A stretch of DNA of 64,000 nt from an uncultured Candidatus Saccharibacteria bacterium (GTDB lineage Bacteria > Patescibacteriota > Saccharimonadia > Saccharimonadales > CAIOMD01): positions 15,856-79,855 of the forward strand of contig CAZMHM010000003.1 in assembly GCA_964566135.1 (NCBI GenBank), read 5' to 3'. A program made the translations under genes and the position numbers. Shown here one piece after another: positions 11,937-64,000 of this stretch; position 1 is the stretch's first letter, and each line of letters begins with the position of its first letter. Below the pieces are notes generated by a model that saw only the letters and a list, made by a program, of their open reading frames with translations, searched no databases and was not told where the DNA came from.

Positions 11937-11993
11937 TACCTATAAATTTATTCAAATAATCGTTTTTTATTTTTTATCTTTAATGATACTTTT

Positions 11994-12434
11994 ATTACTT
12001 TGCCGAGGCAAAGTAATAGCAAACCGACTGGGCGCAAATCAAAAAGACTCTTATCTGATAGTAATAATCACAAAGCACAAAAAGGACTTCACTCCGTTCG
12101 GCCCCTTCAAATACCAATAGAACTCTGGGGCTAACTTTTTGCCTTAGCTTTGATGATTTAACTCGTCTCTAAATCAGTATTAGATTTGATGCCCAGACTC
12201 ATTAATAACAAGATGTTTCTGCGATTGATGTCGGGCATCAGGGATACCATGGGCAGGATTGCCAAACTTACTAACTTCAAAGCAAAAAGGCTAGTCTAAA
12301 ACTCTACTCAAATATAATGAGTTTTAGACCGACTGCAAGGAGTCCTTTCTGCAGTTGTAAGGCTTGGCAAAAACCTGCACCACGGGATATATGCGCCCGA
12401 GAGTTTTTGTATTACTTTTTGGGTAAAAAGTAAT
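11994..12434 (+). repeat. Structured intergenic repeat family, copy 1 (variant 3' half), bounded by two ATTACTTT..AAAGTAAT hairpins
   Basis: Left hairpin 11994-12017 (ATTACTTTGC-cgag-GCAAAGTAAT). Long imperfect inverted repeat 12028-12196 (CTGGGCGCAAATC...CAAAAAG / CTTTTTG...GATTTGATGCCCAG). Right hairpin 12411-12434 (ATTACTTTTT-gggt-AAAAAGTAAT). The first ~210 nt align with copies at 21514 and 44840. Confidence 0.7.
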
Positions 12435-12740: not shown

Positions 12741-12965
12741 AGTTTGTCAAAACGAACATTCAAAGAGCAGATAAAGACGTTAAAAACAAAACAAGATTGT
12801 CCGCAGCGAGTTCATCGTCACAAAATTATGTGGCCGTAAACTTGAATAAATCTTGAGCAAAAAATCTTAAAAAAACACAAGAGATTTGCAGTAGCAACAA
12901 ACATGCTCGGCTCGTAAAAATACAAGACAAACCGCAGAAATTAAAACAAAGGTAACAATTCACAC
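12741..12965 (+). promoter_or_regulatory. Conserved ~225-nt 5' leader of giant gene B (paralogous to 45741-45962)
   Basis: AGTTTGTCAAAACGAACATTCAAAGAGCA...GACGTTAAAAACAAAACAAGAT is near-identical in both leaders. The shared blocks ATGCTCGGCTCGTAAA and ACAAGACAAACCGCA..AAAACAAAGG lie just before a GTG start. The leader is A/C-rich with only a weak AAGG ~15 nt upstream. Confidence 0.6.
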
Positions 12966-15900
12966 GTGAGTAGACTGTTCCGCACCAGTCCCATACTTTC
13001 ACGCACCCATAAAACCTCTGATGTAACAGTGGTACGGGTGCTCTTTGTCGTGTTTGCACTTGCGTTGTTTGTTGCAACGTTCGCTATATATCCTTATACG
13101 CGTGACGCAGGTACGCGCACAGCTAAGGCTGCAACTAACTCAACCCTCAACTTCCAAGCTCGTATCCTCACATCTGGTGGAGCAGTTGTATCAGATGGTA
13201 GCTACAACATTCGTTTCAAGATTTACACTGGTGGTACTAGTGGTGGCCCAGGCGGTATTGGTGCCGCTAACGCTGGTACACTACTTTGGACAGAAACCTG
13301 GCAGAACTCTAACAGCCAAGGTATTGTTACTAAGAACGGCTACATCAGTGCAGCCCTTGGTAGCATTACTGCCTTTAGTGGTATTAACTGGGATCAAGAG
13401 CTTTGGGTAACCATGGACGTTGGTGGTACTAGCGTTGGTGCATCACCAACTTACGACGGTGAAATGCTCCAAACCGGCAACAAGCGCATGAAGGTAACCG
13501 GTGTACCATACGCACTGGCTGCTGGCACTTTGCAAACCACCAATGGAGCCGGTACCCTCAGTAGCACCCTTGCTATTAACACTCCAACGGTTGGTAACCA
13601 AACCTTCCAAATCCCTGACCAAGCCGCTGCTGGTACGTACACAATTTGTATTCAGAACGCGACGGGTTGCGGTTTCCTTAAACGAGGAACAGCCGACACT
13701 TCATCGGGTGCAGCTGGTGCTGGTTACCTGTATGGTTTTACCAACTCATCTAGTGCACTCACTGGCGGTGTTCTGCAACTAGATAACGGTACCAACACTG
13801 GTAACACTCTCTATGTCGCATCATCTGGCAACCCAGCAGCCGGTAAAGCACTCATCGTTGCTAACGCCGCTACTGGTGTTACTGGTAACCTCATTGATCT
13901 CCAGCTCAATGCCGTCAGCAAGTTTAGTGTGAACCAGGCAGGTAATGTCATAGCTGCTGGCACAATTACCAGCGGTGCAGTGAACGGGCTAACCCTCACC
14001 AGTGCCGCTGATGGCTTTACCATAGCTGGTGGTACTACCAGCCGAACTTTAACCGTCACTGGCGCCAGCATCACTATTGGTAGCACCATTACGCCAACTG
14101 CAGCAGGAGCACTTAGCGTGACATCCAATGGTGCTAACGCATTAACACTCGATAGCGGCGGTGCTGCAAATGTAAACATCGGTACTGGTGCCGCCTCCAA
14201 AACCATCCAAATTGGCACCACTGCCGTAAACACTGGTAACACCCAAGCTATTGGCATTGGTAACACAGCAGCAGCCGGTACTACCAACGTCACAATTGGT
14301 GCAACCACTGGTGCTACTGGTGGTACCACCACCATCCAATCGCTTGGTACCCTAGCACTCGGTAACAGCATCAGCCCAACCGTTACCTTACAGTCAACTG
14401 TTGGTGGCACCATTAACCTTGGTACTGCAACTACCACCGGCACTATTAGTCTTGGTGGCACAAGTACCAGTGGCACTATTACCCTTGGTCAATCCAGTGG
14501 TGTTAACAACACCATTAACATTGGTGCAAACATAGCTAACACCTTCACCCAAACCATTAACATTGGTACCAGTGCAACAGGTACTACCAACACAACCATT
14601 GGTTCGGCAACTGCTGGTACTACTATCCTCCAAGGCACTACCCGCTTAAGCGCACTGACCACCAACGGTTTTGTTAAAACAACTGGTGCAAACGGAACCC
14701 TCGCAGTCAGCACTACGGTTGCGCTTGGTAGTGAGGTGAGTGGTATCCTTGGCGCAGCTAATGGCGGTACTGGCAATGGCTTTACCGCATTCAGTGGCCC
14801 AACAACAGCGACTAAGACCTTCGCACTACCTGATGTTTCAACAACTATCTGTACTACCAACAGTGTTTGTGCTGGGTACGCACCAAGTGCAACTAATGGC
14901 TATGTACAGTTGGCGCCGGCGTCAATCCAAGCTGATAGCACTACCAATACTAGTATCTTCCTGAATAAAACAGGTGCAAGTGGCAGTCTGCTAGATTTGC
15001 GAAACAACAACACGAGCATATTTTCTCTTGGATATTCGGGTGCCCTTACAGTACTACCAGTTCAGCCAGCGGCTCTTGCCGCTAATGGTACCTCCCAAGG
15101 CACCACGGTTAACTTTAATGGTGGAATAGGTGGCAACACTACTGGTACAACTGGCCAAACTGCGGGTCAGGGTGGCAATCTCTTCTTTAGTGGCGGTAAT
15201 GGTGGTACTGCCGGAGTAGGTTCTACGAATGGTAGGGGTGGTGATATTACACTACAGGGTGGTACTGCTGGTGCTGGAGCAGGTGGCGCAAACTTTAGTG
15301 GTAACGTACTGCTACAACCAAATACTGGCTTTAGTGTTGGCGTAGGTACTCCAACACCCGCTAACCAGTTCTCGGTCAATGCGCTTACGACTGCAGATGC
15401 TAATTATCGCGTTGCAATCTCTACTCGTGCAACAACCGATAAAGGCCTACTAGTTCAAGGAATCCTTAACCAATCTGGTGATTTGTTCCAGGCCCAAACC
15501 AGCACAGGTGCAACCCTCGCATCTATTGGCGCAACTGGCGCAACCGCATTTAAGAACTCGGTCGATTCTAGTAGTGCATTCCAGATTCAGACCGCAGCAG
15601 GTGTTAATGCAGTTAATCTTAATAATACATACGATACCAACAACCTATTTTCTGCTAACCCTAGTTTCGAGGTAAACACCAATGGTTGGGCTGCAGAAGC
15701 AGCGGGCGGCTCTATAGCTCGCACCACGACAGCGGGCCAGTTTTATTATGGTGATGCAGGTGGTGTGGTCACTACAACTACTACGGCTGGTACGGGTGTT
15801 CGCTATAACCTTACCCTTACAGACGCCACTGTATACAACCTGACTATTCCAATAAAAGGAGCAACGGCATTTAGCACACTACAAATTGGTTATGCATCTA

Positions 15901-18900
15901 CTGGCTTGGTTGGTAGCGAGGGCACTGCTGGCCAGAACTGTACTGCCCTAAATGTAACTACAGGCTGGAGCTTTGTAAGCTGTACTATCACGACAACAAC
16001 GCATTCTGGTACGCCGTATATATATATAAAGCAAACCGATGCCGGCACGGCGCGAACATTCTATATTGATGGCGTAATTTTAGCTCCTGCTGCATTTGGC
16101 AATCTTGGATTTACCGAATCGCATCTATCATTACAAGACACCACATTGGCAATAAATACTACTACGGATACACAGGCAGCGTTAACAATTCAACAGCGCA
16201 TCAGCCAGGGTGGCCTATTGCTTAAGGGTAGCGGCGAAGTAAATATCTTCCAGCAACCACTGCTTGATGTGCAGTCTTCGAGCGGTAGCCCGTTACTACG
16301 AGTGTTAGATACTGTCAATACCGTTCGAGCAACTGGTGGTAGTAGCTTGTACCACAGCGCAGCCTTTACGTCAGTATCTGGTTCGGATGGGTTCCAGTCT
16401 TTGAATGTGTACGGTAACTCTGCAACGCAAACAGCAGATTTGCTGCGAGTACAAAAGAACGCAGGTGCAACCACCGGTTTAGTTGTAACTGCAGCTGGCC
16501 GCCTTGGTATTGGTACGCCGGTGGTGAATACCAATGATGTATCGACAGTGAATTATGATTTAGCATTCGGTCAAGGCGCTGATAGAACTATTGGCGTTGA
16601 AACACAATTAACCGCCGCTACTGCAGGAAACAATCTAACAATTAGTTCTGGCCAAGGCAATACAACCGGGGCAGGTGGAAATATAGCACTGCAAGCTGGT
16701 GGCAGCGGTACTGGTGCTACTGGTAATGGTGGTGGAATTACGCTTACCGCAGGTACTGCGTTGTCAACCGATGGTAACGGCGGTGATATAACGCTAGTTG
16801 CTGGTGCCAAATCCGGCACGGGTACAGGCGGAAAGATAGTGGTTAAACCTGGCACACTTGGCAATCGCATCGACTTCTTCCAATTCCAAAACCAAGGTGG
16901 GTTCCAAGTCGCAAACGTTGACACCCAAAACAACATCTTCAATTTCGGACAGGGTAGTCTCATAGACGGTAAAATTCGCTTCTACAATGCTAGCAGTGGC
17001 AACTTTGTAACAATGGATGCATCAACTGCAGCAGCAAGCTATGTACTACGTCTACCAACTACAGCTGGTGCTGCATCAGATTGTCTTAAGAACTCTGGTA
17101 CTGCTGGTGTGCTTACATTTGGTAGTTGTGCAGCAGCAAGCTCGTTGCAATCTGCATACGATGCTGATGTTGATGGTTCGGACACGGTTATTGCATTAAC
17201 AGCCGCTGACGACTCGCTTATTCTACGTAACCCTGCAGCCGGTGGCACTGATAGTACATATATATTAACGCTCGATCAATTAGCAACAACAGCAAAAGGT
17301 GGTTTAAGCGTACAAAGTGCTGGTACTGGCAACTTGTTGCTTGTTACAGACACTACTGCAACCGCACGTGATGTCCTAACTATTGCAGATGGCGGTGCTA
17401 CTACATTCAGAAATCAAACTAATACTGGGGCGGCATTCCAGGTGCAAAACGCTGCAGGCAGTAGCATTATCAATGTTGGAAGTTCCACTCCACAATTTAC
17501 CCTAAGTGATGGGGCGGTCGCAGGCGCTGGTAATTTAGTACTTACAACTAACGTTGCAAGTGGCGAAGATGCAGGAGATGTAATATTTAACAACAATGCC
17601 GGTACCCAAAAGGCTCGCATATGGTCATCTAGTGCAGCGGGAGTGAGCGGTCTATTCCTAAGCTCTGGTGATCTTACTGCAGATATTTCAATCGACAATT
17701 CGGGTAACACAACCATTGCATCAAACCTCACAGCGAATGGATCATCTCTCTTCAAGAATGGGGCCGATTCTACGACCGCCTTCCAAATCCAAAATGCAGC
17801 CGGCGCAAACATACTCAATGTAAATACCACTGCTGGTAACCTTCTTATTAACGGTGTAGTGCCAGCTACCTTTACGGGTAGTGTCGCTACAAGCCTTACG
17901 CCATTCGCAATCGAAAAAGTTGGCGACTTAATCTATGTAGTAGGTGCAGCTAACAACTTACAAATATTTGACGCTTCTAACCCCGCCTTAGTAACCCTTA
18001 AGACAACATTTGCCGTAACAGGTGCAAGTGCGCTTGAATCAGTTGTTGTACGTGGCAATTATGCATACATCTCGGACTTTACGGCCACTAAGTTCTTTAT
18101 TGTTGACATATCAAACACAAATGCGCCTGTACTTGTAAAAACTGTGACAACTGCCAGCAGTATTGTTGATCTTAATGTTTATGGTAACTATGCATATTTG
18201 TTTACCAACGCAAATACCATTGTTATATACGACATCACAAACCCAAATAACCCTGTTCTTAAAAGCACCACCGCCACTAGCATTACTACCTTTAGTGGTG
18301 CCAGCGGTATCGTGGTAAAGGGGAGCTACTTATATATATCAGGTACTAATGGCACTAATGGAAAGCTATACATATACGACATTAGCAATCCAAGCTTACC
18401 TGTGCTTAAGAATGGCGCTGGTGCCACAACCAACTCAACCTCTCCAGCCGGTATGAGTGTCGTTGGTAGCTATGCGTACATATATAACCGTACACTTACT
18501 GCATCACTTGAAATCTTTGACATATCTAATGCCACAACTACCGCTGCGCATGTTGGTACAGTAAATCTTACCGCAGGTGGCACAATTGCTGGCTGGGGTC
18601 CGTCTTCGGTGTCGGTACAAGGTAATAGAGCGTATGTAACTAATAACTCGGCAAACAGGCTCGAAATTATTGATATTTCGGCTGTTACAGCGCCTACAAT
18701 CAGCGGTTCCGTTTCTACAGATACTCGCCCGGCGGGAGTTAAAGTAGACGGTTTGTATGCCTATGTACTTACCTACACGAGTGCCACAATTAAGACTTAT
18801 AACATTGGTGGTGCATATGCTCAGACTCTCGAAGCCGGTAATCTCAACGTGACTGATTTGCAAGTAGGCAACAGCGCTACCTTTAATGCTAACGCCAGTA

Positions 18901-21506
18901 TCTTTGGAAGCTTAAATGTTGGTCAAAACCTGCAAGTCAATGAAGATTTGGGCGTGGCTGGCAATGCAAAGTTTCAGAATACTGCCAATAATACTAATGC
19001 GTTCAAGATACAAAATACAGCAGGCGCTAATCTGATTAATGTAGACACAATATCAAATAATAATAATCTAATCACTAACCCAAGCGCAGAAGTTGATACT
19101 TCTGGCTGGAATACAAATGCGCCGCGAACAGGCACTGCAATATCACGAACAACAACGGCAGCAAACGTGTATTACGGTGTTGGTGCAATTGATGCAAACG
19201 TAACAACTGGTTCTGTAAATTCTGGCGTAAACTATCCAATAACACTTACAGCGGGTGTTGCGTATAACGCTACTGTCATGATGAAGCTAACGACTAATGG
19301 TAACGTAACGTTTGGTTATGCGCATAACGGTACAGAAGGCACGTACCAAAACAATGCATGTTATGGTGGCAACGCTGGTACGGGATGGTATATTTGTAGC
19401 CTTACATTTACGCCAGCTACGGTTAGCGGCTCGCCGTACTTCTTTATCAAGCAAAACGATTCTGTGGTCCGTCATATCTACATTGATGGTTTATTTATCG
19501 CCCCTGTAGCGGGCTGGACGGGTGGCTATCAAGAAGGTCAAATAAATCTTGGTAATTCGGCCACTCCAGTTTATGTTGGTGGTTCACCCTCAAATCCAAT
19601 TGTAAATGGGATTGGTACTCTTTTTGTTCAGCAGGTACGCGATAAAGCAGGATTGCAGGTTCGTGGCACTCCAGAAAATGATTTGCTTAGACAGCCTATT
19701 TTAAACGTAGAAACAAGCGGACAATTCTCGCTCTTGAATGTCAACGAAGCACAGGCAGTAACGCAAATTCAGGGTGGTTCGGCATTTTGGGGTAGCGCCG
19801 CCTTAAGGGTCTTGAGTAATGATGCTGGTGCAACGGCACTACGAGTTATGGCTGCGCCGAGCCAAACAGGCAATGTATTTGAGGTAACGGACAATAGTGG
19901 CACTGATATGTTTACAGTAGGTTCCGCTGGCAGTACTCTTGTTAAGACATTAACTAATTCAACAACAGCTTTCCAAGTACAGAATTTGGGAGGTACCGCT
20001 GCCTTAACGGTTGATACTACCACTAATGACACTACTCTAAGTGGAGATCTAAGCATTGGTTCGGGGGGTACGCTCGGCCAAGTTATATTTAATAACGGAA
20101 CAGCCAACCTGCTCAGTTATCCAAACGTTGGTGTAGCTGCGCCTACATTCACAACTAGAAGTGCTGGCACTAAGATATTGCTCTATAACGGTTTAACCGG
20201 CAGCGCTACCGATTATGCAATTGGTATTGCAAATAACACGCTCTGGAATAGTGTACCAGCCTCTACGAATCAATTTGCCTGGTACGTAGGCACCACTGCG
20301 GTCGCAACACTAAATGGGTCCGGATGGTTTAATGTTGCTGGCACGGGTACTGCAAACGATGCACCGCTCCATATTCAAAATAGTGGAAACGCATGGACTA
20401 CTGCAACTTGGAAAAAATCTATTCGACTTGATGGTGGTGCGAACGCCATTGAATTTAGTGCAGGTACGGCAAATCCGACTGGTATTGGTGGAACTACAAA
20501 CGGTGTTTATATCTGGGAAGCTGCCGGTGAAACGGGTGCTTCTGGGCTTACCTATGTCATGCGCGCATCGTCTTCATTAGGGTTTTCTGCATATATTGCT
20601 AACGGAGCCGGTGCTACTGCGGTTTGTGCCTCTTCTACTGTAGCAGGTAACAGAACCTTCACTGCAGCTGCAACCGTATGTACTAACCCATCATCAATAC
20701 GACTAAAAGAAAACGTAACTGATATGTCTGATGCGCTAAATATTTTGGGCCAACTACGACCAGTTGCGTTTAACTGGAAGGCAAGCACTGGAATAACTGC
20801 AATTAATGGCGGCTCAGCCGATTATGGTTTCATTGCAGAAGAAGTAAATAATGTTATACCAGAACTAGTCTCTCGTGATGAAAATGGCCAAATACAAGGA
20901 CTCAACTATTCTGGCTTTGTGCCATTCCTAGCTCGTGCTATTCAGCAACAACAAGCAGAAATCACTGCGCTACAAGGTAACGCAGCCGGCATTACTGGTG
21001 GCGGTACTGTAAACGGTAATTTGGCAATCACTGGCAGTCTAAATGTCACCGGCCCAACAACGTTGGATGGCGGGCTAACCGTAAATGGCAATGCAGTCTT
21101 TAACGGAAACCTTACTGTGCAAAACATCCAAGTCGCTAATATCACTATCAATGGGCACATTATTACCGCTGGTAACGCACCAACCGCTGCAGTTGAAACT
21201 GCTGCTGGCATAGCTGATACCCAAAACAATATTGCTGCTCCAGTGGTAACAATAGATGGTAATGATACCGCTGGATCCATTACAATTGTTGCCGGTGCAA
21301 GTACTACAGCGGGTGACATGGCCAACGTGACTTTTACTACTACATTCGGTAAAGCGCCTCGCATTATCTTAACCCCAGTAGGTTCAGACAGCGCTAAGCT
21401 ACAAACCTACGTAAATGGTACCAGTGCTGCTGGCTTTAAACTTGGTACAAATGTTGCACCAGCCGCTGGCACAACGTACACGTATAACTACCAGATAATG
21501 CAATAA
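12966..21506 (+). CDS. Giant cell-surface fibre protein, paralog B (2,846 aa) with a phage-type S74 domain near the C-terminus
   Basis: GTG start conserved with gene C (MSRLFRTSP..). TM/signal-anchor VLFVVFALALFVATFAIY, then NSTLNFQARIL...WTETW...VTGVPYALAAG, an N-terminal domain shared with C and E. Also two GGxGG blocks, two CBM-like modules (15650-16090, 19070-19510), an LVIVD region, S74, and the shared C-terminal module. Confidence 0.93.
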   Translation: MSRLFRTSPILSRTHKTSDVTVVRVLFVVFALALFVATFAIYPYTRDAGTRTAKAATNSTLNFQARILTSGGAVVSDGSYNIRFKIYTGGTSGGPGGIGAANAGTLLWTETWQNSNSQGIVTKNGYISAALGSITAFSGINWDQELWVTMDVGGTSVGASPTYDGEMLQTGNKRMKVTGVPYALAAGTLQTTNGAGTLSSTLAINTPTVGNQTFQIPDQAAAGTYTICIQNATGCGFLKRGTADTSSGAAGAGYLYGFTNSSSALTGGVLQLDNGTNTGNTLYVASSGNPAAGKALIVANAATGVTGNLIDLQLNAVSKFSVNQAGNVIAAGTITSGAVNGLTLTSAADGFTIAGGTTSRTLTVTGASITIGSTITPTAAGALSVTSNGANALTLDSGGAANVNIGTGAASKTIQIGTTAVNTGNTQAIGIGNTAAAGTTNVTIGATTGATGGTTTIQSLGTLALGNSISPTVTLQSTVGGTINLGTATTTGTISLGGTSTSGTITLGQSSGVNNTINIGANIANTFTQTINIGTSATGTTNTTIGSATAGTTILQGTTRLSALTTNGFVKTTGANGTLAVSTTVALGSEVSGILGAANGGTGNGFTAFSGPTTATKTFALPDVSTTICTTNSVCAGYAPSATNGYVQLAPASIQADSTTNTSIFLNKTGASGSLLDLRNNNTSIFSLGYSGALTVLPVQPAALAANGTSQGTTVNFNGGIGGNTTGTTGQTAGQGGNLFFSGGNGGTAGVGSTNGRGGDITLQGGTAGAGAGGANFSGNVLLQPNTGFSVGVGTPTPANQFSVNALTTADANYRVAISTRATTDKGLLVQGILNQSGDLFQAQTSTGATLASIGATGATAFKNSVDSSSAFQIQTAAGVNAVNLNNTYDTNNLFSANPSFEVNTNGWAAEAAGGSIARTTTAGQFYYGDAGGVVTTTTTAGTGVRYNLTLTDATVYNLTIPIKGATAFSTLQIGYASTGLVGSEGTAGQNCTALNVTTGWSFVSCTITTTTHSGTPYIYIKQTDAGTARTFYIDGVILAPAAFGNLGFTESHLSLQDTTLAINTTTDTQAALTIQQRISQGGLLLKGSGEVNIFQQPLLDVQSSSGSPLLRVLDTVNTVRATGGSSLYHSAAFTSVSGSDGFQSLNVYGNSATQTADLLRVQKNAGATTGLVVTAAGRLGIGTPVVNTNDVSTVNYDLAFGQGADRTIGVETQLTAATAGNNLTISSGQGNTTGAGGNIALQAGGSGTGATGNGGGITLTAGTALSTDGNGGDITLVAGAKSGTGTGGKIVVKPGTLGNRIDFFQFQNQGGFQVANVDTQNNIFNFGQGSLIDGKIRFYNASSGNFVTMDASTAAASYVLRLPTTAGAASDCLKNSGTAGVLTFGSCAAASSLQSAYDADVDGSDTVIALTAADDSLILRNPAAGGTDSTYILTLDQLATTAKGGLSVQSAGTGNLLLVTDTTATARDVLTIADGGATTFRNQTNTGAAFQVQNAAGSSIINVGSSTPQFTLSDGAVAGAGNLVLTTNVASGEDAGDVIFNNNAGTQKARIWSSSAAGVSGLFLSSGDLTADISIDNSGNTTIASNLTANGSSLFKNGADSTTAFQIQNAAGANILNVNTTAGNLLINGVVPATFTGSVATSLTPFAIEKVGDLIYVVGAANNLQIFDASNPALVTLKTTFAVTGASALESVVVRGNYAYISDFTATKFFIVDISNTNAPVLVKTVTTASSIVDLNVYGNYAYLFTNANTIVIYDITNPNNPVLKSTTATSITTFSGASGIVVKGSYLYISGTNGTNGKLYIYDISNPSLPVLKNGAGATTNSTSPAGMSVVGSYAYIYNRTLTASLEIFDISNATTTAAHVGTVNLTAGGTIAGWGPSSVSVQGNRAYVTNNSANRLEIIDISAVTAPTISGSVSTDTRPAGVKVDGLYAYVLTYTSATIKTYNIGGAYAQTLEAGNLNVTDLQVGNSATFNANASIFGSLNVGQNLQVNEDLGVAGNAKFQNTANNTNAFKIQNTAGANLINVDTISNNNNLITNPSAEVDTSGWNTNAPRTGTAISRTTTAANVYYGVGAIDANVTTGSVNSGVNYPITLTAGVAYNATVMMKLTTNGNVTFGYAHNGTEGTYQNNACYGGNAGTGWYICSLTFTPATVSGSPYFFIKQNDSVVRHIYIDGLFIAPVAGWTGGYQEGQINLGNSATPVYVGGSPSNPIVNGIGTLFVQQVRDKAGLQVRGTPENDLLRQPILNVETSGQFSLLNVNEAQAVTQIQGGSAFWGSAALRVLSNDAGATALRVMAAPSQTGNVFEVTDNSGTDMFTVGSAGSTLVKTLTNSTTAFQVQNLGGTAALTVDTTTNDTTLSGDLSIGSGGTLGQVIFNNGTANLLSYPNVGVAAPTFTTRSAGTKILLYNGLTGSATDYAIGIANNTLWNSVPASTNQFAWYVGTTAVATLNGSGWFNVAGTGTANDAPLHIQNSGNAWTTATWKKSIRLDGGANAIEFSAGTANPTGIGGTTNGVYIWEAAGETGASGLTYVMRASSSLGFSAYIANGAGATAVCASSTVAGNRTFTAAATVCTNPSSIRLKENVTDMSDALNILGQLRPVAFNWKASTGITAINGGSADYGFIAEEVNNVIPELVSRDENGQIQGLNYSGFVPFLARAIQQQQAEITALQGNAAGITGGGTVNGNLAITGSLNVTGPTTLDGGLTVNGNAVFNGNLTVQNIQVANITINGHIITAGNAPTAAVETAAGIADTQNNIAAPVVTIDGNDTAGSITIVAGASTTAGDMANVTFTTTFGKAPRIILTPVGSDSAKLQTYVNGTSAAGFKLGTNVAPAAGTTYTYNYQIMQ
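17900..18830 (+). other. LVIVD-type beta-propeller region of paralog B (approximate bounds)
   Basis: NYAYISDFTATKFFIVDISNTNAPVLV, NYAYLFTNANTIVIYDITNPNNPVLKS, SYAYIYNRTLTASLEIFDISNATT, RAYVTNNSANRLEIIDISAVTAPTISG, ending YNIGGAYAQT exactly as A ends YNIGGAYIQA. Confidence 0.55.
20688..20975 (+). other. Peptidase S74-type intramolecular chaperone / autoprocessing domain (tailspike-endosialidase type) inside B
   Basis: PSSIRLKENVTDMSDALNILGQLRPVAFNWK...ADYGFIAEEVNNVIPELVSRDENGQIQGLNYSGFVPFLARAIQQQQAEITALQ. The Ser-x4-Lys dyad spacing (S-S-I-R-L-K), the GxIA[QE]EV..xxPxxV block and the terminal helical segment match the family pattern known from phage tail spikes and fibres. Confidence 0.75.
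20970..21503 (+). other. C-terminal module of B, homologous to 11124-11651 of A, lying downstream of the S74 domain
   Basis: Colinear alignment with the C-terminus of A (see feature 11124-11651). Confidence 0.7.
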
Positions 21507-44155: not shown

Positions 44156-44461
44156 GTGAAGAAAGCTGTAATCGCAACCGGTGGCAAGCAATACATCGTC
44201 TCAGAAGGCGATATTATTGAAGTTGAGCTACTAGAAGCAGAAAAAACTGTAGAATTTGAACCATTAATGGTTATCGATGGCGATAAGACCACTGTTGGTA
44301 CCCCAGCCGTTAAAGGTGCTAAAGTAACCGCAGAGGTAGTTGAGCAGAATGTTAAGGCCGATAAGGTTATGGCAATCCGCTACAAAGCAAAGAAGCGCGT
44401 CCACAAAGTTCGTGGTCATCGCCAACAGCACACGCAAATTAAGATTTCGAAAATCGCCTAA
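44156..44461 (+). CDS. rplU: 50S ribosomal protein L21
   Basis: (V)KKAVIATGGKQYIVSEGDIIEVE...KVMAIRYKAKKRVHKVRGHRQQHTQIKI is a typical L21; GTG start with a TAAGGA RBS. Confidence 0.93.
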   Translation: MKKAVIATGGKQYIVSEGDIIEVELLEAEKTVEFEPLMVIDGDKTTVGTPAVKGAKVTAEVVEQNVKADKVMAIRYKAKKRVHKVRGHRQQHTQIKISKIA

Positions 44462-44787: not shown

Positions 44788-44839
44788 ATTACTCACTTCT
44801 TAGAATCATCTCTGCAATGCTGCAAATAATACTTCCTTT

Positions 44840-45290
44840 ATTACTTTTGGCAGCAAAAGTAATGCCAAACTGCTGGGCGCAAATCAAAAGACTCTTATCT
44901 GATAGTAATAATCAAAAAGCGCAAAAAGAACTCGCTACGCTCGGCTTCGCCTAATTTTATAGGAAGGCTCGGCTGACTTTTTGCCTTGGCCTTGTAATTA
45001 GTTACATCATCTAAATCAGCATTTGATTTGATGCCCAGACACATTAATTACAAGTTCTATGTGATTATTGGGGCCCGGGGCATCGGCTTGCTACAAGGTG
45101 TGATATAGCAAAAAGTAAGGAGTAACTACCGAGGACCAGTCCCAACACTTCCAAATAAGTATTGTAGGGGCCGACCAAAGGGGGTTCCGCAGGTACCGAA
45201 GCTTTTAGGTATAGCGCACATCTGCTAGTAAACACAGCCCCGGCAGGTTTACCCAACTTTGCTGCCCAAAGTTGGAAGAGTGCTTTAAGA
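44840..45290 (+). repeat. Structured intergenic repeat family, copy 3
   Basis: Hairpin 44840-44863 (ATTACTTTTG-gcag-CAAAAGTAAT). Long inverted repeat 44873-45038. The 3' module is colinear with copy 2 and conserves its stems (GTCCCAACA/TGTAGGGGC with a U-A to U-G change; CCAACTTTG/CAAAGTTGG; CCGGGGC/GCCCCGG). Confidence 0.7.
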
Positions 45291-45740: not shown

Positions 45741-45962
45741 AGTTTGTCAAAACGAACATTCAAAGAGCAAACAAAGACGTTAAAAACAAAACAAGATCGT
45801 CCGCAGCAGGTTCATCGTCATGTCCGCAACTGGCTATAAACTTGACTAGGTCTTGAACAAACAAATCGCACAAACAAAATGCGAATTGAAATAACAACAA
45901 AAATGCTCGGCTCGTAAACAACAAGACAAACCGCACAAACTAAAACAAAGGCACAATTCGCA
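45741..45962 (+). promoter_or_regulatory. Conserved ~222-nt 5' leader of giant gene C (paralogous to 12741-12965)
   Basis: The first ~85 nt are near-identical to the B leader. It shares the blocks ATGCTCGGCTCGTAAA and ACAAGACAAACCGCA..AAAACAAAGG and the same GTG start context (GTGAGTAGACTGTTCCGCACCAGTCC). Confidence 0.6.
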
Positions 45963-48900
45963 GTGAGTAGACTGTTCCGCACCAGTCCTGTTCTTCATTG
46001 CACCCACGGTACCACTAAAAAGACAGTGGTAAGGGTGCTTTTTGTCGTGCTAAGCCTTAGTTTGTTAGCTACAAGTATTATTCCTATACGCGGGGGTGAG
46101 CGTGCACATGCAGCAAGCAATAACACCCTGAACTTCCAAGCTCGCATCCTCCAGACTAACGGTGCAGTTGTGCCCGATGGTAGCTACAACGTTCGGTTTA
46201 AGATTTACTCTGGTGGTACCAGTGGTGGCCCAGGCGGCATTGGTGCTGCGAACGCTGGTAGCTTGCTGTGGACTGAAACATGGCAGAACTCCAATAGCCA
46301 AGGTATTGATACCAAGAACGGCTACATTAGTGCAGCCCTTGGTAGCATTACGGCGTTCAGTGGCATTAACTGGGATCAAGAACTTTGGATAACCATGGAT
46401 ATCGGTGGCACGAGTGCTGGCGCCAGCCCAACTTACGATGGCGAAATGTTACAAACCGGCAACAAGCGCATGAAGGTTACTGGCGTACCGTATGCAATTG
46501 CTGCCGGCAGGCTTCAAACAACCGATGCAGCGGGTACAAACACAAGTTCGCTTTCGATTGCTGCACCTACTGGCGGTAGCCAAGTATTCCAACTTCAGGA
46601 TCAAACCGCTGCAGGCACATACAACCTTGCGTTGCTTAATGGCAATGGCACGCAGACATTCACGGGATTGAACACATTTAGTGCAGCAGGTACCGCATTG
46701 ACGGTAACGAACAATGCAAGCATCGGCGGCACGCTAGGCGTCACCGGCTTAACGACAGCAACAGGTGGTTTAACGACTGGCACTGGCAGTACGCTGACCG
46801 TTGGTGGTGCAACACTCAACAACACGTTAGCGATTGGTAACCTCAATTACACCGGTACTGGCAATACGGGTTCGATTGGTTCTGCTGCAAGTACGGTAGA
46901 CATCTATACCAACATAACGATTGCACAGACAACTGCTGGCCAAACGCTAACAATTCCTGCACCAACAACTTCAACATCTGGCCGTGTTATTTATATAACC
47001 AACATTGGTAGTGCTGGCTATACTATGGCAGGTGCGGTTGTTAGTCCGGGCGTAACAATGCAGTTCGTTTGGAACAATACTACTTCGAGTTGGTCACTTG
47101 TTACGAGTGGTGTGAGTGGTAGCTATATCCAAAACGGTACTGCCGTACAGACTGCTAACTTTAATATTCAAAGCAATAGTACGACAGATGTTTCGGCTAT
47201 CGTACAAGGTGCAAATAGTCAAAGTGCCGACATTCTACAAGTTAAAGCGGCAAGCATTAGCAGCCCACTATTTAGCGTAAGTGCAACGGGTAATACGACT
47301 GTTCAGCCGAGTGTTGATAGTTCCACTGCATTTGTTGTTAAGAACGCCGCAGGCAGCACAAGCTTGTTCGTTGCCGATACCTCTACGGGAACGGTTTCTG
47401 TCAACGGTAAGTTCATAACAAGTGGTGGTCAAGTTAATATTAACAGTGCCGGTGCAGGGAACACATACATTGGTAACACCGGCTATGCAACTCAACTTAC
47501 TGGTGGGGTTACTTTAACGACTAGTGGATCGGCTAACTTTATAGATATCACCGACGGCACCAACAACTATTTCAGGTTTAATGGCACAAATAGCTCAGTA
47601 TCTGTTGGCAACAGTGCTGTCGCAACATCGGCAACAAATATTAATGCTGGCTCCACGGGCCTCATTAATCTAAACCAGTCAACCACCATTAGTGGTGATC
47701 TTACATTTGTAGTAGGTGCGACAAGAACCATTAGTGTTGCAAACCAAACTGTAAATAACACTGCAGGTAATGGGCTAGTAGTTCGATCTGCTGCTGGTCT
47801 CGGTTCTGGCAGCGGTGGTCAACTAAACGTAGTCGCTGGTGATGGTGGTGCGACTGGCGCAGGTGGCGCAGTCTTTGTTACCGCAGGTAGTAGCGGTTCA
47901 TCTGGCACTGCAGCTGGTGGTCAGCTCAATTTGGCCGGTGGCGCAAGCTTTAATGGTACTGGCGCAGGTGGCGCAGTTAATATTGTTGGCGGCGGCAATT
48001 CTACGACTGGTAGCGGCGGCAATATCAATATCACAGGCGGTGGTACTGATACTGGTGCTGGCGGAAGTGTGTATCTTGACCCAGGACAAGCAGGCAGTGC
48101 ATTTAATCCCGGTAACATATATATAGGAACAATGTCTGGTGGTGGCACTATTAATATAGGAAACACGTCAGACAGTATGGGCGTGAACATTCTGAACGCC
48201 GGTACTCTAAATATAGGCACAGGCAATGTCGGGTCAACCGTCAACCTTGGGACAGGCAATGGTCTAAAGGCAGTTACTATTGGCTCGACAAATACCACTA
48301 GTGGCACAACTATTCTTGCCGGTAGCGGTAACATTAATCTTAATGCTGCAACGATCGCCACTAATCAAACGAGCATCAACCTTCTTAATACCACTGCAAC
48401 AACCGTAAATGCTTTTGGTGCTGCAACTGCCTTAAATATTGGCGCTGGTAGTGGTACAACAACAATCAATAATGGTTTAACTGTATCTGGCGCAACGCTA
48501 CTAAATGGCAACAGCACCATCGGTAACGCCAGTACTGATCGCTTAACTGTAACCAGCCAAATCCTTGGCGGCTCACCACTGGTATTCCAGGGCGCTACCG
48601 ACGATGGCTTTACAACTACCTTTGATGTAACTGATCCAACAGCAAACAATACTATTATATTCCCGAACGCATCTGGCACTGTATTGCTTGCCGCTACAGG
48701 TTCAGGAAATGCGATAGTCCAAGTGCCCACAGCGGCAGGCGTTAACGTTATCACCCCAACCGCAGCAAGCGTTATTGGTCTTACGGTTAACGGTACAATT
48801 GGTACTGCTGCAACTGCACTTGCTATAAGCCAACCGGGTGCGGCAGCAGGCGTTACTATTGCTAGCGCTAACAATACCGCAACAAACGGCCTCAGCTTTA

Positions 48901-60179: not shown

Positions 60180-61067
60180 ATGGATAGGGATAGGTATAAA
60201 AACAGAGCCCAAAACAATGGTCCGCAAAAGCGGTCAATTAATAGTGGCGAAAAGCCTCATCCAGATACGATTAAGCCTAGAGCGGTTCCCGTGACACCCC
60301 CTGTCACTAAGCAGTCCTCCCGGCCTATGTTATTCGATGACGAAGACGATGATATATTTGGTGTTTGGCAAAAACAGCAAGAGATAAAACAAGATCGCAA
60401 GGCAAGAGAGGCGGCAGCAAAACTCGCTAAAAAGGCCGAAAAACTTGCCGCTAAAGAACGTAAAAAAGCGCGTAAAGCTAGTGGTGAGCCACAAGAAATC
60501 GCCATCTCTCTTTCGCTACCAAAAGCACCCAAATTACCCAAGAGGTTGCCAGGTTATAAATCTGAATATAAGAAGCAATATATAGTTGGCGTATCACTAC
60601 TCGCGATACCACTTTTGGTGCTTAGTATTGGGCTGTTTGCGCATAACTCAGCGACAAAAGATAGCAAGAAAACAGATGTACTTGGTCAGAAAACAGTTGC
60701 TGCTAAACCGGATTTTTCAACTATTAAACCAACTACTACCGAAAACCAAGCAACGGCGCTCAAGTACGATGCCTCAAAAAAGGTCGCAACGTTCAATGAT
60801 GTTCTTGCAAGCGTGCCCATCACTGTCAGCCAGCAACCATTGCCATCCGATTTTAAATCAGACCCAACAGGGAAGGTTGAAAACCTTGCTAAACAGTTTA
60901 ATGCTAACGATAAGATTTCAGTTAGTGATGCTACAGCATTCTCTGGAATCTCAATTAAGGGTCCACAGACAGTCATATTCACTAAAAATGACCTACTGGT
61001 GTTTATATTTGCCGATAAAAAGATAGATACGCTTACCTGGAGTAAGTATATCGAGAGCATGCGTTAA
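60180..61067 (+). CDS. Hypothetical single-pass membrane protein (Lys-rich cytoplasmic N-terminus, extracytoplasmic C-domain)
   Basis: 295 aa. KARKEAAAKLAKKAEKLAAKERKKARK, then the TM segment YIVGVSLLAIPLLVLSIGLFAH, then a ~130-aa conserved-looking C-terminal domain. Sits between giant genes D and E. Confidence 0.75.
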   Translation: MDRDRYKNRAQNNGPQKRSINSGEKPHPDTIKPRAVPVTPPVTKQSSRPMLFDDEDDDIFGVWQKQQEIKQDRKAREAAAKLAKKAEKLAAKERKKARKASGEPQEIAISLSLPKAPKLPKRLPGYKSEYKKQYIVGVSLLAIPLLVLSIGLFAHNSATKDSKKTDVLGQKTVAAKPDFSTIKPTTTENQATALKYDASKKVATFNDVLASVPITVSQQPLPSDFKSDPTGKVENLAKQFNANDKISVSDATAFSGISIKGPQTVIFTKNDLLVFIFADKKIDTLTWSKYIESMR

Positions 61068-61295: not shown

Positions 61296-61368
61296 AACTT
61301 TACAAAAAACAAAAACCAACAACAAAAAGTTCACAAAAACCAACAACAAAAACAAAATCCAACCAAAA
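61296..61368 (+). promoter_or_regulatory. C/A-rich, almost G/T-free, SD-less leader of gene E with a 19-nt direct repeat
   Basis: CAAAAACCAACAACAAAAA occurs at 61310-61328 and 61334-61352. The last 16 nt (ACAAAATCCAACCAAA, 61352-61367) are identical to 11895-11910, downstream of gene A. Confidence 0.5.
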
Positions 61369-64000
61369 ATGCGAAAAGCCTTGCTGCGTGCAGGTAAAAC
61401 TGCCTATTCTGTTATAACAGGGAAAGGGACCCGAGTGGTCTCAGCCCTGTTTTTTGCATTTTTTGTATCCCTGTTCGCTTTTATATCTATATACGCGCGT
61501 GATGCGCAGGCTGCTACAAACAGCACTATAAACTTTCAGGCTCGTATCTTGCAGGCTAACGGTGCAGTAATCCCTGATGGCAGCGTAACCGTCCAGTTTA
61601 AGATTTACGATGCAGCTACAGCAGGCACAAACGAGTGGACTGAAACACAATCGCTTACCGCCAAAAACGGATATGTCAGTGCAAGTCTTGGTAGCGTAAC
61701 CTCATTCCCAGGGACAATTGATTGGAGTCAGGAGCACTGGCTGACCATGAACGTCAATAGCGACGGCGAAATGGGGCCGAGCAGGATGAAGATGACTGCA
61801 GTCCCGTATAGCTTCAGATCGGGACAGGCGGATACGCTCACGAACGGAACCGGCACCATTACGGCTGCCGGGCTTTTGCAATTATCGCCAAGTACTATTC
61901 AGAACACTACGTCAGCCACCCCGGCACTTCAGTTTAACCAGCTTGGCGCTGGAGCACTCCTCAAATTGCAATCATCAACAACAGATAAGTTTACCGTGTC
62001 TAACGCAGGTGACGTTACTGCAGCCGCCGGTTTGACCATTGGCAATAGCACTTCTACGACTGCTGGTACGATTCGCTGGAACGGTACTGCATTTGAAGGC
62101 TATAACGGAACAAGCTGGACATCATTAGGTGGTGGCTTAGTCGTAAGTTCGGGTGCTACTGCAAGCTTTGTATCGGGTTTGCAGAACGTTGCAGGTACCG
62201 CTACGGGTACGAATGTCGAAATGCTAGCATTTACGAGTGCCACGGCGGTATCGAACACCGTCGCTTCGGTTGGTTTTACGGCACCTGCAGCAGGTAGCTT
62301 TAGAACATGTCTCGTTAAAAACAATGCCGCAATCACAGCTGGCACGCTTAATTTGCGTTGGCGAGTCAATGGAGTGTCGGTAGGTGCTGCAGGATGTACG
62401 ATGAGTACTGCTGCACCTCGCCAAGACGCCGGTGCAATCGACGCCGGCGTTGTTACGTTTAATGCTGGCGATACCATTAGTGTCGCGTTCGATACGGTTG
62501 GGTTGCTGCCAGCAGCAACCAACGACTTCACTGTTTACTGGTCGGTTGAATACAATAGCTCGTCTAGCAGCCTAACGATGCAAAAGGTCTACGACTCCTC
62601 GGCCGCACCGGTAACGGTTGTTACAACAAACGCTAAAGATGTTAAATACACACTTTCGAACACCGCGACAGACAGTAATTTCTTGGTTGATATCGCAACG
62701 GGCTCAACAAGTAAATTCGCCGTGCAAAATAACGGAACAGATATCTTTAACGTTAATACTTCTGGTGGTGTAGGAGTAACGGGTAATTTAACGGTTAGCG
62801 GTACGACGACGCTGGATGGAAGCCTAATCGCGACGGGTTCTGCAACAGGTACGACTGGTATAGCCGCAAGCCCAGCTCAAACAAATGTTACAACTGTTGC
62901 GCTCACGGCTGCCGGTGCGTTTGCGAATAACGACGTCATCTTCATCAACAACGCAGGACAAGATTATTACACACGAATTGTCAGCGGTGGTGGTACAACT
63001 ACTCTCACCGTTTCGCCATCAGTTAGCTACGACGCCGGCGCAACAATTACGAAATACAATGTTCAGAATATCGGCGCAACAGCAACCGATTACTCGACGC
63101 AGGCTAATCGATTCTTCCAGGGATACTTCTTGGGTGGCGTTGTAGTAGGCGCTGGCAGTACAACAATCAGTGACGGTAACATCGAAAGCACCACGACACT
63201 TAATCTCCAAAAGAACGGCGGCGCACTCGTCATTGGCGGTACGTTAAATGTTGCGGGTACGATTACTGGTGATGCATCAGGATTAACAAATATTAACGCC
63301 TCGCAAATTAGTGGCGGAACCATTGCCGACACAAGCCTAAGTAATAATGTGACTATTCTCGGCAATACCTTCAATGGTGCAAGCCAACTTGTGCAGCTTG
63401 ATGGTGCAGGCGCGCTGCCAGCCTTAGACGGATCTGCGCTCACATCGCTTAACGCGTCAAATATTAGCTCAGGCACGGTTAATGACTTGCGACTGTCGAG
63501 TAATGTGACGCTTAAGGGTAACACCTTCAATGGTGTCAGCCAGTTGGTATTACTTGATGGTTCTGGCAATTTGCCAGCACTTAATGCGGCAGCTCTTACA
63601 AACATCAATGCCACAAATATTGCGAGCGGCACTATTAGTGACCTACGCTTATCGACGAACGTAACCACGAAGGGTAATACTTTCAACGGTATTAACCAGC
63701 TTGTTCTGCTTGACGGTACGGGTAAGTTGCCCTCGCTGGATGCAAGCAACCTAACAAATATAAGTGGCTCAGGTATTACTAACCTAAGTGCATCGAATCT
63801 TTCTTCTGGCACTCTCGATGATCTTCGGCTTTCATCAAATGTGACACTCAAGGGTAATACATTTAATGGGAACAGCCAACTAGTGTTGCTAGACGGATCG
63901 GGCGCGCTGCCAGCCTTAAACGGATCTGCGCTCACATCGCTTAACGCGTCAAATATTAGCTCAGGCACCATTAACGACCTACGCTTATCGACGAACGTAA
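61369..64000 (+). CDS. Giant cell-surface fibre protein, paralog E; the 3' end lies beyond the window (at least 877 codons); absent from the supplied ORF track
   Basis: Translated by hand: frame 1 from ATG 61369 has no stop through 63999. MRKALLRAGK..., TM anchor VVSALFFAFFVSLFAFISIY, then ATNSTINFQARILQANGAVIPDGS...WTETQ...MTAVPYSF, homologous to the N-termini of B and C. Also GTIRWNGTAFEGYNGTSWTSL, FAVQNNGTDIFNVNT, and 52-aa tandem repeats. Confidence 0.85.
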   Translation, partial: MRKALLRAGKTAYSVITGKGTRVVSALFFAFFVSLFAFISIYARDAQAATNSTINFQARILQANGAVIPDGSVTVQFKIYDAATAGTNEWTETQSLTAKNGYVSASLGSVTSFPGTIDWSQEHWLTMNVNSDGEMGPSRMKMTAVPYSFRSGQADTLTNGTGTITAAGLLQLSPSTIQNTTSATPALQFNQLGAGALLKLQSSTTDKFTVSNAGDVTAAAGLTIGNSTSTTAGTIRWNGTAFEGYNGTSWTSLGGGLVVSSGATASFVSGLQNVAGTATGTNVEMLAFTSATAVSNTVASVGFTAPAAGSFRTCLVKNNAAITAGTLNLRWRVNGVSVGAAGCTMSTAAPRQDAGAIDAGVVTFNAGDTISVAFDTVGLLPAATNDFTVYWSVEYNSSSSSLTMQKVYDSSAAPVTVVTTNAKDVKYTLSNTATDSNFLVDIATGSTSKFAVQNNGTDIFNVNTSGGVGVTGNLTVSGTTTLDGSLIATGSATGTTGIAASPAQTNVTTVALTAAGAFANNDVIFINNAGQDYYTRIVSGGGTTTLTVSPSVSYDAGATITKYNVQNIGATATDYSTQANRFFQGYFLGGVVVGAGSTTISDGNIESTTTLNLQKNGGALVIGGTLNVAGTITGDASGLTNINASQISGGTIADTSLSNNVTILGNTFNGASQLVQLDGAGALPALDGSALTSLNASNISSGTVNDLRLSSNVTLKGNTFNGVSQLVLLDGSGNLPALNAAALTNINATNIASGTISDLRLSTNVTTKGNTFNGINQLVLLDGTGKLPSLDASNLTNISGSGITNLSASNLSSGTLDDLRLSSNVTLKGNTFNGNSQLVLLDGSGALPALNGSALTSLNASNISSGTINDLRLSTNV
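63283..64000 (+). repeat. In-frame tandem repeats of 156 nt (52 aa) in gene E, at least 4.4 units, continuing off-window
   Basis: Units start at 63283, 63439, 63595, 63751 (this one is 180 nt, with an 8-aa insertion) and 63931. Consensus: LTNxNASNISSGTxxDLRLSxNVTLKGNTFNGxSQLVLLDGSGxLPALxxSA. 63403-63477 and 63895-63969 are almost identical at the nucleotide level. Confidence 0.9.

Follow-up and report, generated by a model that had tools for sequence, protein, structure and literature searches.

What kind of gene lies at the right-hand edge of this stretch of Saccharibacteria DNA, and what might its product do? The stretch analysed here (the window, 64,000 nt of an uncultured Candidatus Saccharibacteria contig) carries four very large proteins, called A to D. 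The original prediction held that positions 61369-64000 encode the beginning of a fifth giant paralogue, E, in a region where a mechanical list of open reading frames (ORFs) shows ORFs only on the opposite strand. E proves to be a real protein-coding gene, and its product is likely to be a Sec-exported, chimeric surface fibre that resembles the MAT fibres of Bdellovibrio. A role specifically in host attachment is proposed more tentatively, by analogy, and falls a little short of being the probable outcome.

The coding status of the region was addressed by translating the + strand from the ATG at 61369. As had been claimed, this frame contains 877 sense codons and zero stops up to window position 64000; a check for an in-frame stop in frame 1 across 61369-64000 found none on translation. 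Each of the other five frames has 15-83 stops over the same interval, and the probability of 877 open codons by chance is ~7e-22 given the composition of the window and ~6e-20 given the local composition. An NCBI protein of 1,432 amino acids (aa), P0001, is 100% identical over all 877 residues of E, and a protein search with these residues found 104 homologues; the few with a source name, like the best genome loci, belong to Saccharibacteria/Patescibacteria metagenome-assembled genomes. The ATG at 61369 is supported as the start of gene E by sequence comparison, being the same Met as in P0001 and equivalent to the starts of the orthologues P0002, P0005 and P0009. Relative to the best related genome locus, L002 (66% identity to E), gene E shows 376 synonymous and 216 non-synonymous codon differences, with 185, 147 and 519 substitutions at codon positions 1, 2 and 3. 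These codon-position counts were rejected as evidence for the + frame: wobble positions are common to the E frame and the antisense ORFs, and the counts fail to tell them apart. The decision between the antisense and + frames was made on stop counts in orthologues, family hits, homologues of the + product and folded domains. The reading frames at issue are the following.

61369..64000, + strand: 5' part of gene E, codons 1-877 of 1,432, defined by the open frame and by identity to P0001.
62100..62531, - strand: antisense shadow ORF of 143 aa; not a gene.
63090..63971, - strand: antisense shadow ORF of 293 aa, mirroring the repeat array; not a gene.

The mechanical ORF list, at its 150-aa threshold, gives only 63090-63971 (-) in the E region. 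Both antisense ORFs occupy a minus-strand frame that has the same third codon positions as E and is stop-poor, with 15 stops over 2.6 kb. A stop arises in this frame only where a suitable wobble base precedes a + strand codon that begins with TA or CA, and such codons are scarce in E, whose 877 residues include 16 Tyr, 1 His and 28 Gln; hence the low number of stops. Neither antisense product has a Pfam match. At 62100-62531, L002, L003, L005, L007 and L015 each carry a minimum of one stop per antisense frame, and the segment at 63090-63971 has 2-44 stops per antisense frame in the four orthologues that cover it (L002, L003, L005 and L015). Together with the 104 homologues of the + product, these data uphold the original view that the antisense ORFs are shadows.

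Where gene E ends can be estimated from P0001, which is encoded on a 145,470-bp NCBI contig and which, given the sequence identity, we infer to be the product of the same gene. Since P0001 has 1,432 aa, the stop codon of E would lie ~1.67 kb past the window, at roughly 65665-65667. E is missing from the ORF list because the list omits ORFs that run off the window; the original explanation, that E has no stop in the window, was thus correct, whereas its attribution to the edge of a contig was not, the edge being that of the 64-kb window. The description of E as a giant has to be dropped, with 1,432 aa in P0001 compared to 2,142 to >3,803 aa for A-D (A, >3,803 aa; B, 2,846; C, 2,417; D, 2,142). 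So does the warning that reliance on the ORF track would lead to wrong annotation: P0001 is already predicted in NCBI, and no actual annotation is wrong. The importance for annotation is small, as the gene is complete in the source contig and is missed only by a window-based ORF track. The same track mis-starts ORF A at the opposite edge. The frame of the listed ORF A, 243-11654 (+), is already open at window base 3, and the first ~80 residues of the extended A match residues 190-270 of B almost exactly. On this basis A is cut by the left window edge, mirroring E at the right, with a true length of >3,880 aa and with the listed GTG start at 243 an artefact.

Evidence for export and for a MAT-like fibre base comes from the N-terminus of E. 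Residue n of E starts at window position 61369+3(n-1), which places the N-terminal features as follows.

61369..61434, + strand: basic N-terminal tail (n-region; MRKALLRAGKTAYSVITGKGTR), residues 1-22, from the translation; basic tails are conserved in orthologues.
61435..61494, + strand: hydrophobic segment VVSALFFAFFVSLFAFISIY, residues 23-42, a signal-peptide h-region or signal anchor by Kyte-Doolittle analysis.
61504..61512, + strand: A-Q-A, residues 46-48, a putative signal-peptidase I site with predicted cleavage after A48.
61513..61818, + strand: beta-rich N-terminal domain (MAT_N-like), residues 49-150, common to B and C, from the AlphaFold2 (AF2) model and NCBIfam.

For the hydrophobic segment, the Kyte-Doolittle mean (19 residues) peaks at 2.58, at residue 23, and a hydrophobic core occupies the equivalent position in 91 of the 98 relatives with enough upstream sequence. 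In the homologue alignment A46, A48 and A49 are invariant or nearly so, and an AXA-like motif is found no more than 14 aa before the first beta strand in 104/114 relatives. Where E has its hydrophobic segment, relatives from Gram-negative lineages have canonical short cleavable signal peptides. The transmembrane anchor reported originally is therefore present as a hydrophobic stretch at residues 23-42, but its status as a permanent anchor does not follow: cleavage as a Sec signal peptide is no less likely, because the position matches the signal peptides of Gram-negative relatives and the A-x-A is conserved. The N-terminus is read here as a Sec signal peptide, possibly a signal anchor.

The domain that follows is all-beta, with AF2 model confidence (pLDDT) of 82-95 for residues 50-144, and is present in 99 of the 104 homologues, always at the N-terminus. 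Among 18,950 NCBIfam models, Bdello_MAT_N is the sole family matched by E (25.2-30.8 bits; E-values of 1.2e-5 to 2.2e-7). This family was also matched by 18/18 diverse aligned N-domains, drawn from Saccharibacteria, other Patescibacteria, Krumholzibacteria, Chitinivibrionia, Gemmatimonadota, Myxococcales and Micavibrio (lowest E-value, 4.8e-10); one of the 18 has an extra, marginal match to GXX_rpt_CTERM (E-value 0.0077). An exhaustive profile search with the N-domain retrieved 69,568 cluster representatives at E-values <=1e-3 and 32,231 at <=1e-10, with the domain almost always at residues 20-170 in proteins of 130-4,643 aa. A homologue search with the N-domain alignment returned only a few short, mostly unnamed proteins and did not reach the Bdellovibrio MATs. 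Pfam scans of E, B and C gave no match over the N-domain, leaving an N-terminal anchor domain without a Pfam model although it is carried by ~70,000 cluster representatives. The domain follows a signal peptide in many phyla, several predatory or epibiotic lineages among them; carriers include L045 (Micavibrio), L064, L066 and L074 (Myxococcales), L031 and L046 (Krumholzibacteria), L044 (Moraniibacteria) and P0137 (Lujinxingia).

The N-terminus also links E to two of its large neighbours. Homology to B and C had been claimed from the sequence by eye, and alignment agrees: BLASTP pairs E residues 29-220 with B 32-249 (42% identity, E-value 8e-34) and E 44-156 with C 46-186 (48%, 1e-31), and a MAFFT alignment of the N-termini gives 45% and 43% identity, respectively, with many invariant columns. 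Searching with full-length E by phmmer missed B and C (bias filter), and searching with the first 400 aa recovered both. One further module is common to E and C (E 1173-1297 versus C 1396-1520, 36% identity by BLASTP). Neither D nor the portion of A inside the window showed BLASTP similarity to E; the N-terminus of D is of another kind, and D contains two Kelch beta-propellers. E and B/C thus have in common an N-terminal module of ~190 aa, with one internal module in addition for C. As a fifth paralogue, E stands at the level of modules (the N-terminus of B and C, the internal module of C) and not as a whole protein, and it lacks both marks of the A-D set, homology to each of A-D and a length of >2,000 aa. 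B (12966-21506) has a Peptidase_S74 domain (PF13884) at residues 2576-2635 (1.1e-12) in addition to LVIVD repeats; LVIVD repeats are also found in A, and CBM_4_9 in C.

The remainder of E within the window is a succession of modules.

62065..62127, + strand: conserved GTIRWNGTAFEGYNGTSWTSL motif, residues 233-253, with invariant columns.
62143..62565, + strand: beta-sandwich, C1q/TNF-like jelly roll, residues 259-399 (AF2 pLDDT ~70-86; Foldseek).
62566..63342, + strand: poorly modelled shaft, residues 400-658, including the conserved block FINNAGQDYYTR...SPSVSYDAGAT (pLDDT mostly <60).
63343..64000, + strand: repeat copies 1-4 (52, 52, 60 and 52 aa) followed by the start of copy 5 (3 residues), residues 659-877, from a motif scan.

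The invariant columns of the motif at residues 233-253 (form GTIRW...EGYNG..W..L) are G233, T234, R236, W237, G239, Y245, W250 and L253. Searches with the pattern led to loci in Bacteroidota, Micavibrio, Moraniibacteria and others; to judge from these matches, it is a small module common to many fibre-like proteins from other phyla. Residues 259-399 match PDB structures of Cbln1, C1QL, ExsFA/BxpB, collagen X NC1 and phage cement/knob proteins in Foldseek (prob 0.97-1.0, TMt 0.4-0.53), and the solved structures matched have a trimer-forming fold. The shaft at residues 400-658 (module N3) is conserved in 18 homologues. The full repeat array has 8 copies (NVTLKGNTFNG.SQLVLLDGSGALPALNGSALTSLNASNISSGT..DLRLS) and extends beyond the window, over residues 659-~1085. 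The copies are 69-85% identical in protein and have diverged to 64-79% in DNA, which is why Tandem Repeats Finder reported no DNA tandem repeat in E. Within the array, E residues 799-933 align with a tail fiber protein of Synechococcus phage S-SRM01 (gp051) at 38% identity (8e-8). The array is followed, outside the window and as seen in P0001, by a conserved module with a Cys pair at residues 1085-1290. The overall composition of E is of low charge, with Thr, Ser, Gly, Ala and Asn abundant.

The C-terminal tip, residues 1290-1432 of P0001, lies outside the window and is modelled with a pLDDT of 76-91. Its fold matches the TNF-like lectins PLTL (9ib9, TMt 0.65) and the BC2L-C N-domain (2wq4, TMt 0.62), and also a cyanophage short-tail-fibre carbohydrate-binding domain, Pgp3 and the receptor-binding protein (RBP) heads of lactococcal phages. 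When P0001 was compared by tblastn with 50,697 phage genomes, nine records matched, seven of which represent one Streptomyces phage lineage of 6 phages (Beuffert, SparkleGoddess, Comrade, Karp and others), with 38-40% identity over E residues 1292-1431 (3e-14). Compared pairwise with the C-terminal 140 aa of Beuffert gp29, the tip shows 40% identity in an alignment that runs to both C-termini (3e-24). Residues 1292-1431 correspond to extrapolated window positions 65242-65661, with a counterpart at 6001-6420 of L080. The 358-aa gp29 is annotated as a minor tail protein, and its gene lies between those for the major capsid protein and the head-to-tail adaptor. In a BFVD fold search with the N-terminal model of E, the top matches were minor tail proteins from phages of Mycobacterium and Gordonia. 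A homologue search with the tip alone returned only a few short, mostly unnamed proteins and no Bdellovibrio MATs. Because cultivated Saccharibacteria grow on Actinobacteria (PMC10633639), a tip sequence common to E and actinophages is suggestive and hints at an actinobacterial host.

Comparison of homologues showed that the parts of E are exchangeable. In a table of modules, E-type modules occur in differing orders and combinations among homologues. P0003 matches E at 73% identity across residues 23-1286 before ending in an unrelated tip; P0004 has another tip, and P0005 has the tip-type module twice. A tip-type module also replaces the C1q-like domain of E (259-399) in P0004, P0005 and P0007. 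E and its relatives thus have a variable C-terminal tip on a conserved scaffold, as is characteristic of MAT-like fibres. While the mosaicism is directly visible, diversified binding specificity would be its presumed purpose.

The genomic context of E is chromosomal, not that of a prophage. Housekeeping genes in the window include those for a ROK kinase, ribosomal protein S1, putative ribosomal protein L21, IF-2, Met-tRNA formyltransferase and PriA, as well as methionine aminopeptidase, FtsA, FtsZ, class II ribonucleotide reductase and an aminoacyl-tRNA synthetase. The gene order C-D-F-E is kept in L002, where it is followed by parA/parB. Between D and E lies F (60180-61067), a small protein rich in Lys that has a single hydrophobic segment and could be assigned to no family; a protein with 31% identity occupies the position of F in L002 (8560-9498). 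F might be a partner of the fibre genes. The gap separating C from the aminoacyl-tRNA synthetase gene is low in GC (0.39); within it, a 101-aa ORF at 44156-44461 reads like ribosomal protein L21, by sequence recognition only.

The DNA immediately upstream of E was also inspected for expression signals.

61300..61368, + strand: A/C-rich (CAA-type) 5' leader of ~70 nt abutting the start codon, from reading of the sequence.

No Shine-Dalgarno motif was found in this leader (61300-61368). A weak sigma-70-like site at 61330-61358 matches at 9/12 positions (6 sites found versus 3.4 expected). A 24-nt match between the regions upstream of E and B was judged to be due to chance; it involves an A/C-rich stretch beside the terminator of A. 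Rfam and tRNA scans of the window found no RNA features. B and C have duplicated non-coding DNA upstream, with 11982-12212 and 12741-13052 matching 44825-45054 and 45741-46049; the blocks are 77.5% identical over 236 nt and 80.5% over 313 nt, the latter including ~225 nt before the start codons. This shared DNA may be a common leader or promoter, and it is absent from the region upstream of E.

These observations suggest a model for how E might function. E would be exported by Sec through its N-terminal signal peptide or anchor, consisting of the hydrophobic segment and the AQA, presumably with cleavage after A48. The N-domain would then fix the fibre by its base to the envelope of the cell that makes it, by analogy with Bdellovibrio MAT fibres. 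The jelly roll, the shaft and the eight 52-aa repeats would form an extended stalk. This stalk is probably trimeric, as indirectly suggested by the two modelled TNF/C1q-like domains of E, whose solved matches are trimers. The TNF-like, lectin-type tip would bind a glycan on the host surface, the host presumably being an actinobacterium. Lastly, binding specificity would be diversified as paralogues (A, B, C and E) and orthologues exchange modules and tips.

Several observations weigh against this model. The E score of 30.8 bits is below the curated cutoff of 60 for Bdello_MAT_N (NF053851), and the match covers positions 2-77 of the 162-position profile; because of this score, E is to be regarded, on sequence criteria, as a remote homologue and not as a member of the Bdellovibrio MAT subfamily. 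Pfam (nothing above noise), PHROGs and PDB sequence searches with E gave no match. Foldseek E-values for the jelly roll are only ~2e-3, and the jelly roll is a common fold. About 60% of the monomer AF2 model has a pLDDT of <70, including the whole repeat shaft; with pLDDT this low, the geometry of the fibre is left unmodelled by the AF2 monomer. The phage homologue of the tip comes from a single lineage (Annadreamyvirus), and actinophages are over-represented in phage databases. Moreover, gp29 may be a head fibre or decoration protein and not a receptor-binding tail protein; its role in the virion is uncertain because its gene sits between capsid and head-to-tail adaptor genes. Finally, the identification of E with P0001 beyond residue 877 is extrapolated from identity over the first 877 aa.

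Of the alternatives, the one that survives best is that E is a structural envelope protein (S-layer, sheath or coat) that forms a protective or spacing layer with no part in host recognition. This is unlikely, even though a low-charge composition rich in Thr, Ser, Gly, Ala and Asn, an N-terminal export signal and membership of a multigene family of very large proteins among housekeeping genes would all suit such a protein, and the C1q-like matches ExsFA/BxpB are structural proteins of the exosporium. S-layers, however, are usually encoded by one or two abundant, conserved genes and not by a mosaic family with swapped tips. Furthermore, the tip of E resembles lectins, phage receptor-binding heads and a phage virion protein, and its N-domain is related to that of the prey-binding fibres of Bdellovibrio.

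Less likely again is that E acts as an antagonistic effector, with the tip targeting a host cell for wall degradation by enzymatic paralogues, and not as a stable adhesin. Some Saccharibacteria lyse their hosts, and paralogues of E carry modules tied to carbohydrate binding or to enzymes, CBM_4_9 in C and LVIVD repeats with Peptidase_S74 in B. Bdellovibrio MATs also act during prey invasion (PMC10769870). E itself, however, has no catalytic or toxin domain detectable by Pfam, NCBIfam or fold search, and consists purely of anchor, shaft and tip.

The similarity of E in sequence and fold to phage tail fibre or minor tail proteins raises the question of whether E is the tail-fibre gene of an integrated prophage or tailocin. 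This is very improbable. E is not encoded in a phage structural module: there are no other phage genes nearby, the neighbours are housekeeping genes for S1, IF-2, PriA, FtsA/FtsZ, ribonucleotide reductase and an aminoacyl-tRNA synthetase, and the orthologous locus carries parA/parB. Gene order is kept between genomes that are only ~66-75% identical in E, GC content is unremarkable, PHROGs gives no match, and virion fibres have no need of a Sec signal or a cellular MAT_N-like domain. As for the possibility that the + frame is an accident of low-complexity DNA and that one or both antisense ORFs are true genes, it can be put aside as practically negligible: the ORF track does show antisense ORFs only, and shared wobble positions do prevent codon-position counts from separating the frames, but 877 open codons by chance (~1e-20), 104 homologues of matching architecture and confidently folded domains for the + product, antisense ORFs without family matches, stops in the antisense frames of every orthologue examined, and an ORF length accounted for by scarce Tyr, His and Gln codons in E all argue against it.

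If E is a MAT-like surface fibre, as favoured here, the locus bears on a gap in the biology of these organisms, since host recognition and attachment by Patescibacteria are largely unexplained beyond type IV pili and unnamed 'adhesins' (PMC10633639, PMC12206443). The locus contains a fibre family built like the prey-recognition fibres of Bdellovibrio and like phage tail fibres, and E-type fibres are concrete, testable candidates for the host-specificity determinants of Patescibacteria. A broader proposal, speculative and on balance doubtful, is that Saccharibacteria share an ancient fibre toolkit of MAT_N anchors and exchangeable tips with many bacteria that live on or prey on bacteria (Micavibrio, Myxococcales, Bradymonadales and other Patescibacteria), and that they trade receptor-binding tips with phages of the same hosts. 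Were this so, the tip that E has in common with Streptomyces phage virion proteins would be the determinant that recognises an actinobacterial host, and tip sequences could be used to predict the hosts of uncultured epibionts. A MAT-like or phage-like chimeric fibre is an already known kind of protein; what is without a published description in the literature searched is its occurrence in this lineage, as no paper was found that links MAT or chimeric fibres with Saccharibacteria.

Comparison with known systems reveals three sets of parallels. The first is with TNF/C1q-like proteins, namely Photorhabdus PLTL, the Burkholderia BC2L-C N-domain, Bacillus ExsFA/BxpB and C1q/cerebellin. E residues 259-399 and 1290-1432 are predicted jelly rolls of this type (prob 0.97-1.0, TMt 0.4-0.65), but with identity of only 10-16% and Foldseek E-values of ~2e-3 to 1e-2 the resemblance is at the level of the fold only. 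The second parallel is with phage fibres. Identity is 40% between the tip and the C-terminus of gp29 and 38% between the repeats and the tail fiber protein of S-SRM01; folds match RBP heads and minor tail proteins, and the modular design of shaft plus tip is the same. In contrast to phage fibre genes, E is cellular and chromosomal; it encodes a Sec signal and a presumed cell-anchoring N-domain, has no phage genes around it and finds no match in PHROGs, and the phage gene for gp29 itself adjoins capsid genes.

The closest parallel is with the MATs of Bdellovibrio. The organism that carries E differs from a diderm predator in being a Patescibacteria epibiont, and is monoderm. The E match to the MAT_N model is below the cutoff and confined to the first half of the profile, E differs in the sequences of its repeat unit and tip, and it has a long basic n-region with a 20-residue hydrophobic segment that is a potential membrane anchor. 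The 21 Bdellovibrio MATs have a signal peptide followed by an N-domain, fall into subfamilies with and without Peptidase_S74, and form intertwined trimers with diverse, swappable tips that are displayed on the predator surface and bind glycans (Caulton et al. 2024, PMC10769870). For E, trimerisation, surface display and glycan binding are predictions from sequence and models. The architecture of E follows the same plan, with a hydrophobic segment at 23-42, AQA at 46-48 and an all-beta domain at 49-150, so that the putative signal peptide directly precedes a conserved, beta-rich N-domain of ~110-130 aa with a significant match to the MAT_N model and to no other. As in the MATs, a long repetitive shaft leads to variable, swappable C-terminal tips, and the multigene family has members with Peptidase_S74 (B) and without it (C and E), making E of the non-S74 type. 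Both systems, moreover, are found in organisms that live on or at the expense of other bacteria.

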